From a virus (Duplodnaviria; Heunggongvirae; Uroviricota; Caudoviricetes), in IMG/VR virus record IMGVR_UViG_3300029745_000181: a DNA stretch of 27,172 bases; one strand, given 5' to 3'. Shown piece after piece: positions 12,001-18,000 of this stretch. A program made the position numbers. Numbering within the stretch: the stretch's first letter is position 1; each line of letters begins with the position of its first letter.

Positions 12001-15000
12001 GTGACTCCGCGTATTCTGCCTGGCGTTACCGCCATCGGGCAAGGTGCGTGGCTTAAAGCGGATATGTTTGGTGACCGGGTCGATCACGGCGGCAGTATCA
12101 ATATTCTGACCTCTCACCGCCCTTCACCGCTGGCAAAGGGAAACCCGTCGCACAGCAATCTTGTCCAGATCGAAAAGGTTTAAGGAGTAGCCCATGACCA
12201 CACAATATGGATTTTTTATCGATTCCAGCCGCTGTACTGGCTGTAAAACCTGCGAACTGGCGTGCAAAGATTTTAAAGTTGGTTACGTATCGTTTAAAAT
12301 CAATTAGATAGCCCGTCATTTCTGCGCTCACACGTCCCAACATTGAAAAACATGCAAAGCTTTGTAAGCCGATGCAAAGCTTTGTGTGTCTCACTTTTGT
12401 CCCAATACCAATCCGAATCCACCCTTTGTCATCATTGAGAAATGGCAAGGAAGAAAAGGATGTTACTGCACGATTTGACAAATCCGCCAGAGCTATCGCA
12501 TACTGATCGCACTGAACAAATAAGCGGTCTCCGCACCCGATAGCTTTGCGGCTTTTTTATGCCTGCAATTTGGCATAGTTACATCCGTACAAAGGTCGGG
12601 TGGAGAGGCGTAATACAACACCCGCAAGGGGAATATGCCCAGAGCTTCTTATTTGGCTCAGTTGACACCCGACCGCCAGCTACTAACTGGCGGTTATAAA
12701 CTAAACAAATAAGGAGGTCATCATGACCAGTCAACTCATCCCCGTATTCAACGGCACTATCGACAACGAAACAGCCCTACTCTGCAATGCCCGCGATCTG
12801 CATGCTTTTTTAGGCGTGAAAAAAGTGTTTGCGGCATGGATTACAAATCGCATTTCAGAATACGAATTCATTGAAAATCAAGACTATATTTTGCTTTCCA
12901 ATTTGGGAAAGCAAACATCTGGTAGAGGCGGTCACAACCGCAAGGACTACCACCTAACTCTCGACACAGCCAAAGAACTGGCGATGGTTGACGACTGCGT
13001 CCAATACTGACTATACTCCGCGCCGAGGCCTCGAAAACCTCCCAAAAGCGGATTAAACCAACCCCGTCAGTGTTGGATTTTTTATGCCTGTTATTCAGTG
13101 ATAGCACAGTGTGCGGTCACATCCCCGATCAATGTCGGGAGGGCGACGAATACAACACCCGCAAGGGGAATAAGTCCGCGGTATCTTTTGGGCCGTTTCG
13201 AGCCTCCCGGCACCACATTTTGTGGTGGCATTTCTCGAAAAAAGCCAAAGGAGGTCATCATGACCACTCAACTCATCCCTGTGTTTGAAGGTACAATCTC
13301 AAATGAACCTACGCTTCTGGTGAACGCGCGTGATTTGCATGGATTTTTAGAGGTAGGTAAAGATTTTTCTAACTGGATACGGGCCAGGCTAAACGAGTAT
13401 GGATTCGTAGAAAATTTAGACTACATTCTATTTTCGCCAAATTTGGCGAAAACTCCAGGCCGCCGCCGCAAGGATTACCACCTCACCCTCGACACAGCCA
13501 AAGAGCTTGCGATGGTTGAACGTAACGAAAAAGGCCGCCAGATACGCCGCTACTTCATCGAGTGCGAAAAGAAACTTCGCAACATTCAGCCAGTACAAGC
13601 AGAACCACAGCCGCAATTCACAGCCGAGGAAATCATCCTCCTTTGCTACATGCAGCTCTGGATGGAAAAAGCCCAGGACCTTAGCAAGCAGCTGTACCCC
13701 ATAATGAAAGAGCTGAACTCCTCATACACGAACAAGCTGTATGACATTGCGTTTGAGACTATCTACATGGTGACGAAGAACAGAGATGTGCTACTGAGAG
13801 AGGCGGCACGGCTTGACCAGTCGAGTTTCGTAGTTCAGCGGGCCAGACCAATGCTGAAAAGCCTGCGGGCAAGACAATTTGAATTCTGATACCAAAGGAG
13901 CTTCGGCTCCTTTTTTTATACCTGAACGACAACGCCGCTGAAATCGAAGAGTTAATACAATAAAGAGAAGAGCTCAGTACATTAGATAAACATTTTTTAT
14001 CATTATCTCATTGCCTTTATTCAAAAAAATAGTTACATAACGTTACTAGGTAAAATGCAAACCCTCGCTATTTTTATCAGATTGTATGCCGGTAACTATA
14101 ACAAAAATCAGAACTGGAGAAGATGTTTTGTCAGCAGCCATTCACCGCATTGAATGGTTGTTTGAAACATTCTCTTCTGTATGTTTATCTTTTTCTGGCG
14201 GTAAAGATTCCACTGTACTTTTCCATCTTGTAGCCGAAGTGGCCTACAGGAAGAAACGTCGTTTTTCTGTATTGTTCATTGACTGGGAAGCCCAGTATCA
14301 ATGCACCATTGATCATATACAGAAGATGCGGATGATGTACCAAGATGTAACAGATACCTTTTACTGGGTTGCACTTCCCCTGACGACAGTAAATGGTGTC
14401 TCGCAGTTTCAGCCTGAGTGGATATGCTGGGAGCCCGGTGTAGAGTGGGTTCGACAGCCACCGGAAGATGCTATTACTGATATGGCGTATTTCCCCTTTT
14501 ACCGCTACGCCATGACTTTTGAAGAATTTGTCCCAGCTTTTTCTTCCTGGTTCGCAAGTAACCAATGTAGCGTGGCAATACTGACTGGAGTCCGCGCGGA
14601 TGAATCTCTTAACAGATTTATGGGACTGGTTTCCCAACGAAAACTGAGATATGCAGATGATAAACCCTGGACCACGGCGTCACCTGAAGGTTTTTACTAC
14701 ACCATGTATCCGCTGTATGACTGGAAAACCAACGATATCTGGGTATATAACGCTAAAACCTGTGCAATCTACAATCCTCTGTATGATTTGATGTACCGTG
14801 CAGGCATTCCTCTACGTAATATGCGTGTCTGTGAGCCTTTTGGCCCGGAACAGCGTAAGGGACTATGGCTTTATCATGTTCTGGAGCCAGAAACTTGGGC
14901 ACGGATGTGTGAACGAGTATCTGGTGCTGCCAGTGGGGCTCTTTATGCCAATGAAAGCGGGGCCTATTTTGCCCTGCGTAAACGGATGTCAAAACCATCC

Positions 15001-18000
15001 CATCATACCTGGCGCAGCTATGCGTTCTTCCTGCTGGACGTAATGCCGGAAAGAACGGCTGAACACTACCGCAACAAGATAGCAGTTTACCTGCGCTGGT
15101 ATCAGAACCGGGGATTCCCGGATGATATCCCGGATGAACAGGAAAATGATCTGGGCTGCCGGGATGTTCCCTCCTGGCGACGTATTTGTAAGACTCTCAT
15201 AAAGAATGATTTCTGGTGCCGAACGCTCTCCTTCAGCCCCAACAAACCCCGGCACTATGAACGTTACCTGCAGCGTATGAATGAAAGGAGGAAGGAATGG
15301 GGAATTCTGTGACACCAGAGGTGGAGGTGCTGAGCAAGATGATTCGACAGTACTTCAGTCAGGAACAATCTGAAGAGAAAACCATACAGGCCCTGAACCA
15401 TCTCCGCTGCGTACTCCATGAGATCAGCCCCTTTGCTCAAGAACCAGTGGACTGTGTGCTGTGGGTAAAAGCGGATGAAATTGTCGCTAACGATTATAAT
15501 CCCAATGTCATGGCCCCAAGCGAAAAAAAATTACTGAAACAATCTCTGGAAAAAGACGGTTTTACTCAACCAATTGTTGTTTCGGAAGAAACAAGCCATT
15601 ACCTGGTGGTGGATGGTTTTCATAGGCAGTTACTAGGTAGAAGAACAGTTACTGGAAAACGCCTGAAAGGCTGGCTACCAGTAACCTGTATTAATCCAGA
15701 CCGAAAGGGACAAACCTCACGTATTGCCGCGACTATCCGACATAACAGAGCCAGGGGGAAACACCAGATAACCTCAATGTCTGATATTGTCAGAGATCTT
15801 TCACGTCTTGGCTGGACTGATGAACGTATCGGAACAGAACTGGGGATGGACCAGGATGAAGTTCTGAGGTTAAAGCAGATTAGCGGGCTAACGGAGTTAT
15901 TTCAGCAGGCAGATTTCAGCCCTGCATGGACTGTTACATAAAGTTAGGTTAGGCCTGTGGAGCCGGGGAATCGGAATTAAACATCTTCCCTCCCCGGTAA
16001 ATACAAATAAGGGCTGAACATCATCCCGACTACCTCAGATCACTTAATAATATATCAAGATTATTTTGCGCATAAATGCTATTCGCCATTACTGTTGCTG
16101 CTTCTGGCGACTTTCCAAGAGCAATAAATATATCCTTAAGGCTGATTGGAATTGATGAACCATGCGGATCGCGCCACTCACCGCAAATTCTGTGAGTTTC
16201 ATCACAAAGCCTGAACGCATCCCAACCTCCATATTGACCAAAAATTATGTCCATTGACTCTATTTCTGCGGGCGATAACTCCCCCAGCTCATCAACAGAA
16301 GAAAATGTACGCCACATTTCAACCTTATGATCCGCTACATCAGATATCCATGATTCCCACGGACTGTACTCGTTTTCGCTTCCATCCTTAACCAAAGAAT
16401 ATGTCTGCGATAAAACGGGTCCTTTGTTCATAGAGAAATAATGATCACCACTAATGGGAAAACCATACAACTCCATTGCTTTGCGGTCAGAGAGATACAT
16501 CAGCTTAATGAAACGCATAGATCCGCCATGTTTTTTCAGCAAATACGCTGCCATTTACGCAACTTTTTCTTCATTAAACATAAATCGGCTCTCTGTCTCA
16601 CATGAAATACTCTTTCTGACTATATGTTAATAGCTCCGGTTATTACAGGTTAATGTGTGTTTATTTCTTAATCAGCCCCGCACTTCCGTACGGGGCCATT
16701 TCTGTTAATCCACTCCCACTTTTTTGTTGTACTCGCGGTTAAAGCGATCCACGGCAACCTTCATATCCCGCTCTACCGATTTCACCATCGCCGCCTGCTG
16801 CGCCAGACTGAGAGAACTGTCGGCATAAATGGCATCGCGCTGTTTGCGCAAATCCTTCAGTCTCTTCCGGGTATCCTGCATAAGCCCGTTCATCAACAAT
16901 TTTCCGTTGTTCTCGTCAATGAACGCCGTTCTTTCTGCACCGGTCAGACTCTTCAGCTCTGCGTGATACTGCGCAACCTCTGTCATCCGGTCGTACATCT
17001 TCTGCTGGTCTGCATACGGCATCACCTCACCCGAAATTTTCCCCAGGAAGGGCACCTGCTGTTCCGGTATATCAATACCATGCAGCGATTTCACCGCCGC
17101 ATCCGTGGTTTTGGAAATGAAGCGCCCTGTCCCTCCGGAGATATAGTCAATCCAGAATTTCAGCGATTCCGGTGTGATATCCACCGCGCCGGGACGATAC
17201 TGGCTGCCACCTGAGAACGCATTCAGCCAGGATGCAAACGCCTTGTACGCTTCTGGCGTTGAACGTCTTCCCAGCTGGCTGTCAGGTTTTGGTGTACCAA
17301 ACGGCATGTTCTCCTGGTAAATCTGCGCCCCCATGAAGTTTTCGTTCATGGCAAGATTCGCAAACGGACGCAGAATTGTCGGTGCTGCATTTTTCAGCAA
17401 TGCCCCGGACAGCGTTTCCGACGTCTCACTGCCAATCGGGCTGAATGCCCCCAGGATACCACCGACAACATTACCGGCAGCACGGGACGCCGTCAGGTCG
17501 CCCGCTGCCACACCTTCAGAGGTATGCCCGAGCAGGAAGAAAACGTTGTACCCGTAAGGCAGAGGAATACTCCAGTACTCTCCGGCCCTGCCCCCGAACA
17601 TCGATTTCATAATGACGAGGTTACGCTCTTTCACATGATACGGCACCTTGTCGTACCAGTTAACCCCGTCATCATCCTCACCCGCCACACTGCGGTTAAG
17701 CGAGCCAAGCAGATAACCCGCTCCCACAGCTGCAAGCGCGATTTTCTGCGGTACATTGAGATTCTTCCAGCGAAGGCGCTCCAGTAACGGCCCGTCGCCA
17801 TTAAGATGTCCGAGCGTTCTCACCAGGTTTGCGGTCCCCTGAATGCTGGCGTTGGCAAACATATACAGCGAGTTCATCAGCGCTCCCTGCTCACCACGAC
17901 GGTTAAAGTTCACCGTCATGTTTTTGGCAAGAGATGCCGCCTGCTGGCGTGACAAACCGGCATCACGGGCGTGTTTATAGGCAGAAAGACGCAGAGCGTT

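Follow-up and report, generated by a model that had tools for sequence, protein, structure and literature searches.

The ibrAB gene pair of an Escherichia coli prophage: a PP-loop ATP pyrophosphatase near-obligately linked to a ParB-like protein, with a possible DNA-directed function

What is the function of a prophage gene pair whose products carry the database names of a sulfur-metabolism enzyme and of a partition protein? The question is raised by the viral record IMGVR_UViG_3300029745_000181 (IMG/VR; Caudoviricetes), a stretch of 27,172 nucleotides (nt) analysed here and referred to in its whole length as the window. The open reading frame (ORF) list and the sequence place the two genes, ibrA (14086–15312, plus strand; 408 aa) and ibrB (15297–15941, plus strand; 214 aa), in the same direction with an overlap of 16 nt (15297–15312). 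As the initial annotation had read it, a Shine-Dalgarno motif AGGAGG serving ibrB lies within the 3′ end of ibrA (15286–15291, plus strand), with the ATG 5 nt further on; judged by this arrangement, ibrA and ibrB are translationally coupled. No obvious Shine-Dalgarno motif precedes ibrA itself. We propose, tentatively, that ibrAB constitutes a DNA-directed, ATP-dependent two-gene module whose action would involve a covalent change.

By its sequence the locus is ibrAB itself and not merely IbrAB-like, a closer match than had initially been claimed. An exact-sequence look-up returned UniRef entries named IbrA (RepID Q8KU24_ECOLX) and IbrB (RepID Q8KU23_ECOLX) for the window proteins, and identical proteins are encoded on at least 1000 public contigs. 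Their names and accession range suggest that Q8KU24 and Q8KU23 date from the original description of ibrAB. Identical DNA in a uropathogenic E. coli is annotated in RefSeq with the products “phosphoadenosine phosphosulfate reductase” and “IbrB-like domain-containing protein”. The setting agrees as well: the overlapping co-directional pair has antirepressor genes upstream, Shiga toxin (Stx)-phage-like genes downstream and a phage junction at ynfF/ynfG. The K-12 ynfG gene starts at 1,662,990, corresponding to 35.8 min, which we take to be the map position of the IbrAB island of strain ECOR-9; this island is said to carry antirepressor-like and Stx-phage-like genes. The window holds the founding allele of ibrAB, within the island of its first description.

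A copy of ibrAB with at least 60% nucleotide identity is present in 1930 of the 5426 complete E. coli genomes; in nearly every case the identity is 80–90%, and 19 complete genomes possess the window allele at 99% identity or more. The common island allele, found for example in O157:H7, is 91% (IbrA) and 87% (IbrB) identical to that of the window. Distribution within the species is patchy, with copies on islands and plasmids, and E. coli strains often have two copies, ibrAB and ybdNM.

IbrA had been described as a PP-loop protein with the motif SFSGGKDS and a large C-terminal extension, and both parts are recognised by hidden Markov models: the Pfam domain PAPS_reduct (PF01507) scores 61 bits, above its cut-off, and DUF3440 (PF11922) scores 114.8 bits against a gathering cut-off of 25. 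The part with the phosphoadenosine phosphosulfate (PAPS) reductase fold covers aa ~10–240 and contains the PP-loop at aa 35–42 (14188–14211, plus strand), while the helical DUF3440 region covers aa ~240–408 (14803–15309, plus strand). AlphaFold2 predicts the former with a predicted local distance difference test score (pLDDT) of ~90 and the DUF3440 half poorly, giving a mean of 74. The best solved-structure matches of the model are adenosine phosphosulfate reductase (15.4), CysD (14.2), CysH (14.0) and yeast flavin mononucleotide (FMN) adenylyltransferase (13.6), with TilS, TtuA, NAD and GMP synthetases and QueC among the further ones; the search of solved structures found none closely related to IbrA by sequence. 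The Pfam score, the SGGxDS loop and the Rossmann-like fold place IbrA in the PP-loop ATP pyrophosphatase superfamily, and sequence and predicted fold together identify it as an ATP pyrophosphatase or adenylyltransferase of PAPS-reductase fold, extended by DUF3440.

An alignment of 37 family members, 27–57% identical to IbrA, has twelve invariant positions (G39, K40, S42, D66, E68, T74, W115, W121, S174, P209, D217 and Y233), and a further twelve are conserved in at least 90% of the sequences (S37, G38, D41, R170, E173, R177, D212, W213, R247, P251, W271 and R277). No cysteine column is conserved in these 37 sequences; the best one, at 84%, is occupied by alanine in IbrA. A metal cluster formed by C114, C249, C368 and C378 was also considered and rejected, as these semi-conserved cysteines do not co-vary. 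One relative, P0358 (631 aa), carries a probable LAGLIDADG-type intein at residues ~221–460, recognised by a weak Pfam Intein_splicing match (E = 0.002) and an LGGIYDGEGS motif. It is inserted exactly at the conserved motif DYN|xxYD (the vertical bar marks the insertion point), which marks this motif as functionally critical. Pfam searches of other long relatives revealed no informative domain fusion, the single ABC_tran match probably being a gene-call artefact.

Several lines of annotation would make IbrA a phage CysH, that is, a PAPS reductase encoded by an auxiliary metabolic gene that boosts assimilatory sulfate reduction. Its RefSeq product name says so, PHROG 2302 is labelled as an auxiliary metabolic gene, the fold matches CysH, and the viral “cysH” genes listed among sulfur auxiliary metabolic genes include IbrA-type genes, with a DUF3440 clade noted (10.1101/2021.01.05.425418; PMC12323421). 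However, the NCBIfam CysH and PAPS-reductase models give IbrA only 25–33 bits against cut-offs of 154–254 (NF002537, 32.9 versus 154; TIGR02057, 31.2 versus 254), and the CysD family model is likewise far below its cut-off. The ATP-type loop SFSGGKDS stands where K-12 CysH has SSSFGIQA, and a lysine occupies the position of the catalytic cysteine of K-12 CysH (ECGLH). The lack of any family-conserved cysteine and the obligate linkage to a ParB-like gene, and not to cys genes, also speak against this explanation, which the sequence effectively refutes: the database name almost certainly misleads in making IbrA an enzyme of sulfur metabolism. Since no cysteine is conserved in the family, IbrA is neither a CysH nor a DndC-type iron-sulfur (Fe-S) sulfurtransferase. 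CysD, FMN adenylyltransferase and DndC, the enzymes of this fold clade that use ATP, all adenylylate a sulfate or phosphate oxygen, and by analogy with them adenylylation is the most likely chemistry of IbrA.

IbrB is a divergent protein. The single sequence scores 18.9 bits against the Pfam ParB_N model, below the cut-off of 26.3, and the ParB assignment becomes visible at the level of a family profile, which matches Helicobacter pylori ParB (4umk; E = 6e-6), then Noc and Spo0J, and weakly SbnI. The family set comprises 20 members, 46–88% identical to IbrB. All 20 match their own PHROG, phrog_2159 (“ParB-like partition protein”); the leading ParB-like PHROGs (phrog_2159, phrog_26387 and phrog_1033) are matched by 18–20 members, and the next three after phrog_2159 and phrog_498 by 14–19, with best E-values outside IbrB’s own PHROG down to 1e-16. 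All 20 also match phrog_498, annotated as DNA methyltransferase, at positions 37–160 of its 633-position profile (best E = 1.6e-12), a segment that we interpret as a ParB-like N-terminal domain. These matches support membership of IbrB in the ParB/Srx superfamily.

A divergent ParB/Srx N-terminal domain (aa ~50–156) is followed by a probable helix-turn-helix (aa ~160–195); the C-terminal 55 residues are helix-turn-helix-like and aa 160–193 weakly match phrog_6831, a “transcriptional regulator”. Both motifs highlighted by the initial annotation are present: VVDGFHR (aa 104–110; 15606–15626, plus strand) aligns with the ParB arginine patch GERRxR, and RHNRARG (aa 148–154; 15738–15758, plus strand) aligns with ParB box III (ENLQR). 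In IbrB the former is changed to DGFHR (GERR to GFHR) and the latter to RHNRAR, box III reading “atirhnra” against “alienlqr” of Noc (7ol9). Both motifs being altered, IbrB cannot be counted among canonical ParB CTPase clamps. Family conservation is unusually strong, including NDYNPN, E76, DGxTQPxV, DGxHR, LP, TIRHNRARGxH, LGMxxDExLR and a terminal W; D106, G107, H109, R110 and the whole of R148–G154 are invariant.

The two genes are almost never found apart. Among 80 viral contigs with an IbrA relative, 77 have IbrB adjacent, and in the remaining three IbrA lies within ~460 nt of the contig start; conversely, when 80 genomic loci were located by way of IbrB, 77 of them had IbrA as a direct neighbour. 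The genome search with the IbrB alignment, using one genome per species, produced more than 600 stretches among the matches listed. Hosts of the genomic loci include Proteobacteria, among them Enterobacteriaceae, and Bacillota, Actinomycetota, Bacteroidota, Spirochaetota, Planctomycetota, Chloroflexota, Candidate Phyla Radiation bacteria and an archaeal metagenome-assembled genome, so that the linkage of IbrA and IbrB is essentially obligate across domains of life. The genes are co-directional at all examined loci, and the overlap of the ibrA end with the ibrB start recurs in close and some distant relatives. Only two fragmentary read-throughs resembling an IbrA–IbrB fusion were found among 150 representatives.

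Three orders of the cassette occur: A-B, A-GNAT-B (in Pseudomonas, Bordetella, Achromobacter and Dactylosporangium) and B-X-A. Gene X, placed between IbrB and IbrA in environmental cassettes, encodes a ~130-aa protein with the motif NHQAWIGHAGC...PEDLTR..W...AN..A; neither Pfam nor PHROG has a family that it matches, and the window lacks it. Some loci have both GNAT and X. The loci L044 (2037–2435), L081 (5096–5987) and L032 (7208–7627) exemplify these optional third genes. Beyond them, the viral and genomic loci show no recurrent partner of the pair, be it a nuclease, a methylase, a desulfurase or any other.

Positions of the cassette in phage genomes differ. It is part of the replication module in Streptococcus phage PY1, and immediately precedes the terminase genes in Mycobacterium phage Obutu (L166:1–2717) and Faecalibacterium phage Taranis (L168:4324–6663). 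A second, unrelated ParB-like gene precedes the IbrA–IbrB cassette in both Obutu and Taranis. The apparently lytic Flavobacterium phage FCL-2 also carries the pair, and ibrAB has been described as a possible virulence factor (PMC4541368). Heimdallarchaeal viruses have been reported to encode it as well (PMC8813620).

The window itself consists of E. coli DNA (rspBA, ynfA–F and a ynfG stub) followed by phage DNA, in which a truncated antirepressor gene (12723–13010), a full antirepressor gene (13260–13889), ibrA, ibrB, a convergent Panacea-domain gene, a giant LPD38 gene, lom and tail genes succeed one another. An identical ibrAB pair, annotated as IbrA and IbrB, is carried close to attP by the plaque-forming lambdoid Escherichia phage PhiR5_2 (PV340546; 61.5 kb), which was propagated on MG1655. 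Compared with PhiR5_2 and NZ_CP049845, the window has lost ~6.6 kb near position 21672 (~21600–21760), and with it five or six small genes, hok among them, and the 5′ portion of the LPD38 “polyvalent” gene, 8.4 kb in length; a remnant LPD38 ORF of 1631 aa is left (16705–21600, minus strand). Because of this loss, the prophage copy in the window is probably defective.

The gene order of PhiR5_2 offers a clue to expression. Its left end carries int, exo, bet, gam, kil, N and cI on the minus strand, followed on the plus strand by cro, cII, O, the nin region, lysis, terminase and structural genes; at the right end the minus strand is used again, by ibrB, ibrA, ant and ant′. Downstream of int, beyond attP, the circular genome thus continues with ant′, ant, ibrA and ibrB, without a change of strand. 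This location corresponds to the b region of lambda, well known as a slot for accessory genes, and the initial description of the pair as prophage cargo was reasonable. Given this order, a leftward pL transcript continuing past int and attP would enter ant′, ant, ibrA and ibrB, and by analogy with lambda early lytic expression of ibrAB from pL is plausible. An intrinsic-terminator-like hairpin with a T-run (13894–13920, plus strand) separates ibrA from the antirepressor gene, as had been noted: eight pairs, four of them GC, form the stem at 13894–13913, shortly after the antirepressor stop at 13889, and are followed by TTTTTAT. N-antiterminated pL transcription could override this hairpin and read ibrAB early in lytic growth, while in the lysogen ibrAB would be cut off from pL.

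The hairpin is followed by an AT-rich region of 171 nt 5′ of ibrA (13915–14085, plus strand; 31% G+C compared with 47% in the two genes). That the pair has its own AT-rich upstream region was a correct observation, but a dedicated promoter there was set aside as unsupported, a consensus scan of 13915–14085 having found no sigma-70-like promoter. Homology to other E. coli ibrAB loci begins only within the coding region (matches start at query position 204–270), and the region upstream of ibrA is therefore specific to this context.

Any common function must suit lytic and temperate viruses of diverse hosts, and it must need both proteins and an intact PP-loop. In the module that we propose as the best fit, IbrB would be a nucleic-acid-binding and possibly nucleoside triphosphate (NTP)-binding targeting subunit, and IbrA an ATP-dependent adenylate-forming enzyme that is brought to its substrate, or regulated on it, by IbrB. 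The chemistry would probably consist in activating a phosphate or a carbonyl group by means of AMP, with transfer as the next step; the lack of a conserved cysteine argues for such activation and not for sulfate reduction or for sulfur insertion of the Dnd type through an Fe-S cluster or persulfide. Activation of eib would then be a downstream effect of an activity at the DNA level. Cooperation of the two proteins is suggested by their adjacency at 77 of 80 viral and 77 of 80 genomic loci and by the overlap with its internal Shine-Dalgarno motif. As for DNA as the substrate, the IbrB family matches the PHROG of phage DNA methyltransferases, DndB–DndC and DpdB–DpdA provide precedents, the cassette occurs in replication and pre-packaging positions, and a GNAT gene is an optional part of the operon, the DNA-modifying enzyme Mom of phage Mu being GNAT-like. 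A bolder version is that IbrAB installs an undescribed, non-sulfur, adenylate-activated covalent mark on the backbone phosphate or a base of phage DNA, elaborated by the GNAT protein in some lineages; we consider this unlikely. It would mean a pan-viral DNA-modification system, extending from E. coli phages to Asgard-archaeal viruses and misannotated as a “cysH auxiliary metabolic gene” and a “prophage co-activator”.

A number of observations weigh against a DNA-directed module. Fold comparison found no solved structural analogue of DUF3440, leaving nothing that ties IbrA to DNA directly. The altered arginine and box III motifs of IbrB mean that NTP-dependent clamping is not assured, and its structure prediction has low confidence (pLDDT 46, from a shallow alignment with 74–92% identity), so that the helix-turn-helix and the NTP pocket are deduced from sequence only. 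We know of no unexplained DNA modification in K-12, which carries ybdNM. This point is qualified by a report that ybdNM is repressed by CitR (PMC9068703). The absence of a defined biochemistry, pointed out in the initial annotation, agrees with our literature search, which yielded no biochemical or structural study of the family and no report of modification, DNA binding or ATPase activity. Furthermore, the reduced genome of the endosymbiont Ca. Providencia siddallii contains an intact IbrB/YbdM homologue (57% identity; L103:5953–6600) between plsB and suhB without an adjacent IbrA, hinting at an IbrA-independent role; ybdM and ybdN are two of the only three genes in this genome that free-living Providencia do not share (PMC4684696). 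Finally, a gene-expression phenotype such as that of eib is also what would be expected of a pure regulator.

This last possibility deserves closer attention. KorB, VirB and DndB are ParB-family proteins that regulate transcription (DndB is the one discussed further below), and IbrB could be a VirB/KorB-like regulator or anti-silencer opening H-NS-silenced, AT-rich acquired genes such as eib, with IbrA as an accessory enzyme making, consuming or loading a nucleotide ligand for IbrB and DNA not covalently changed. DndB is mentioned in PMC12839542. The sole published phenotype known to us is the activation of prophage eib expression by ibrA and ibrB together, reported by Sandt and co-workers in 2002 (cited in PMC7649339), and ibrB is co-induced with the neighbouring perC in Shiga toxin-producing E. 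coli on contact with epithelial cells (PMC7649339). The ParB N-terminal domain with its helix-turn-helix-like segment and weak phrog_6831 match, together with the solitary homologue in the endosymbiont, fits such a regulator. On the other hand, viruses with hosts as different as Bacteroidota, Bacillota, Actinomycetota and Asgard archaea have kept the pair, and some of them are apparently lytic phages (PMC8813620; PMC4541368); in view of this diversity anti-silencing of host genes cannot be the common function. Simple regulation would hardly explain why an enzyme of 400 aa that uses ATP, its catalytic motifs fully conserved, is strictly required, and upstream regions differ between ibrAB contexts, leaving no common operator evident. 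We regard a purely regulatory role as rather improbable.

We give a low probability to a role in counter-defence or defence without stable marking of DNA, in which the pair would protect the phage or the lysogen through a component of the host or of a rival phage, for example by adenylylating or depleting a nucleotide signal, a protein or a tRNA, and IbrB would serve as sensor or scaffold. Such a role would suit a place among the accessory genes of a temperate phage, beside antirepressors and a Panacea antitoxin-domain gene, as well as the patchy distribution among complete E. coli genomes, 1930 out of 5426, and the copies on plasmids and islands, and the nearest solved relatives of IbrA adenylylate small molecules (FMN and sulfate). 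However, no PADLOC model recognises IbrB, the match of IbrA is weak and limited to the PP-loop (BrxP, 28 bits), and the neighbourhood of the pair has no conserved gene for an effector, nuclease or sensor. In Enterobacteriaceae it is moreover core-like, as ybdNM under a metabolic LysR repressor, and to our knowledge E. coli fragment screens for phage defence have not reported it. DNA modification or counter-defence, as the initial annotation suggested, may be a sensible reading of the pair. This analysis found no support for a defence role.

The gene pair has been known since 2002, and its presence in a prophage is not new. Our analysis adds that the window carries the founding allele, that IbrA cannot be a CysH or a DndC-like enzyme, that the linkage to IbrB is near-obligate, that GNAT and X genes may join the cassette, and that its position is reachable from pL. 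The question of their function is larger than the existing literature suggests: most bacterial phyla have phages and prophages in which the two genes are neighbours, and viruses of Asgard archaea reportedly have them too. Viral “cysH” has been ranked first in abundance among the organosulfur auxiliary metabolic genes of viromes; its DUF3440 clade should not be read as sulfate assimilation, given the ATP-type PP-loop, the missing catalytic cysteine and the linkage to a ParB-like gene. As PhiR5_2, with identical genes, plaques on E. coli K-12, the function is directly testable by phage genetics and DNA mass spectrometry.

Some features surrounding the pair deserve mention in their own right. A hairpin at 15962–15998 (strand unassigned; RNA fold of −20.9 kcal/mol, z = −1.9) lies between ibrB and the convergent Panacea gene; RNA folding showed no T-run, and the hairpin may perhaps act as a bidirectional terminator. 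The Panacea/SocA antitoxin-domain ORF (16030–16554, minus strand; Pfam 70.7 bits) immediately follows the LPD38 gene in the direction of transcription, with no obvious toxin partner present, and we speculate that its product might neutralise a toxic domain of the giant LPD38 protein. Each antirepressor ORF is closely preceded by a match to the Rfam family RF02221, “sRNA-Xcc1” (12594–12682 and 13134–13219, plus strand; 69 and 74 bits, gathering score 53). The two matches are ~540 nt apart, and short repeats recur around them at a spacing of 528–537 nt; they may represent a structured leader or small RNA controlling ant. At the other side of the host segment, an integrase gene of a second, separate prophage (617–1912, plus strand) adjoins rspB at the K-12 Qin locus, and the ynfA–F segment consequently lies between two lambdoid prophages.

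How does ibrAB compare with known systems? The DndB–DndC, SspD and BREX type 4 BrxP systems act on the DNA backbone. DndB–DndC resembles ibrAB in that a ParB/Srx “DGxHR” protein is encoded beside a PP-loop ATP pyrophosphatase of the PAPS-reductase family (PMC12839542). The analogies to Dnd and BREX initially drawn are weaker than was implied, as IbrA fails the DndC and BrxP models in addition to those of CysH. It scores 17.8 bits against the DndC model TIGR03183 (cut-off 290) and 18–21 bits against the PADLOC DndC models, and its PADLOC BrxP match covers aa 17–96, the PP-loop, only; in PADLOC-DB v2 no model matches IbrB, and these weak partial BrxP and DndC matches are all that IbrA gives. IbrA differs from the Dnd, Ssp and BREX proteins in lacking conserved Fe-S cysteines and in having DUF3440 instead, and neither the window nor the recurrent neighbours contain DndA, DndD, DndE, Ssp or BREX partner genes. 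Membership in Dnd or BREX was rejected in view of model scores far below cut-off and the lack of a conserved cysteine.

CysD and FMN adenylyltransferase (the PAPS domain of eukaryotic FAD synthase) share the fold of IbrA, but have small-molecule substrates, no DUF3440 and no ParB partner. The phrog_498 methyltransferases, if the position of the match is interpreted correctly, couple a ParB-like domain to a DNA-modifying enzyme, and DpdB of the Dpd 7-deazaguanine system offers a similar combination (PMC12839542). In ibrAB, by contrast, the enzyme is a separate PP-loop protein and neither a methyltransferase nor a tRNA-guanine transglycosylase, and IbrB is not recognised as DpdB. The ParB, Noc and KorB clamps share with IbrB a homologous N-terminal domain followed by a helix-turn-helix-like segment; IbrB differs from them in the lack of a ParA partner and in its length, as the 214-aa protein ends soon after this segment and leaves no room for a C-terminal dimerisation domain.

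The closest likenesses are those already proposed in the initial annotation. K-12 YbdN and YbdM have the same architecture, encoded by overlapping genes, with 57% (IbrA) and 61% (IbrB) full-length identity and all motifs kept, although ybdNM differs in being chromosomal beside citR, outside any prophage, and CitR-repressed (PMC9068703). With IbrA and IbrB of ECOR-9 (Q8KU24 and Q8KU23) there is no difference at the protein level, and the overlapping A-to-B order and the antirepressor and Stx-phage-like neighbours are shared; the difference lies in the prophage, which in the window has the 6.6-kb deletion relative to PhiR5_2 and NZ_CP049845.

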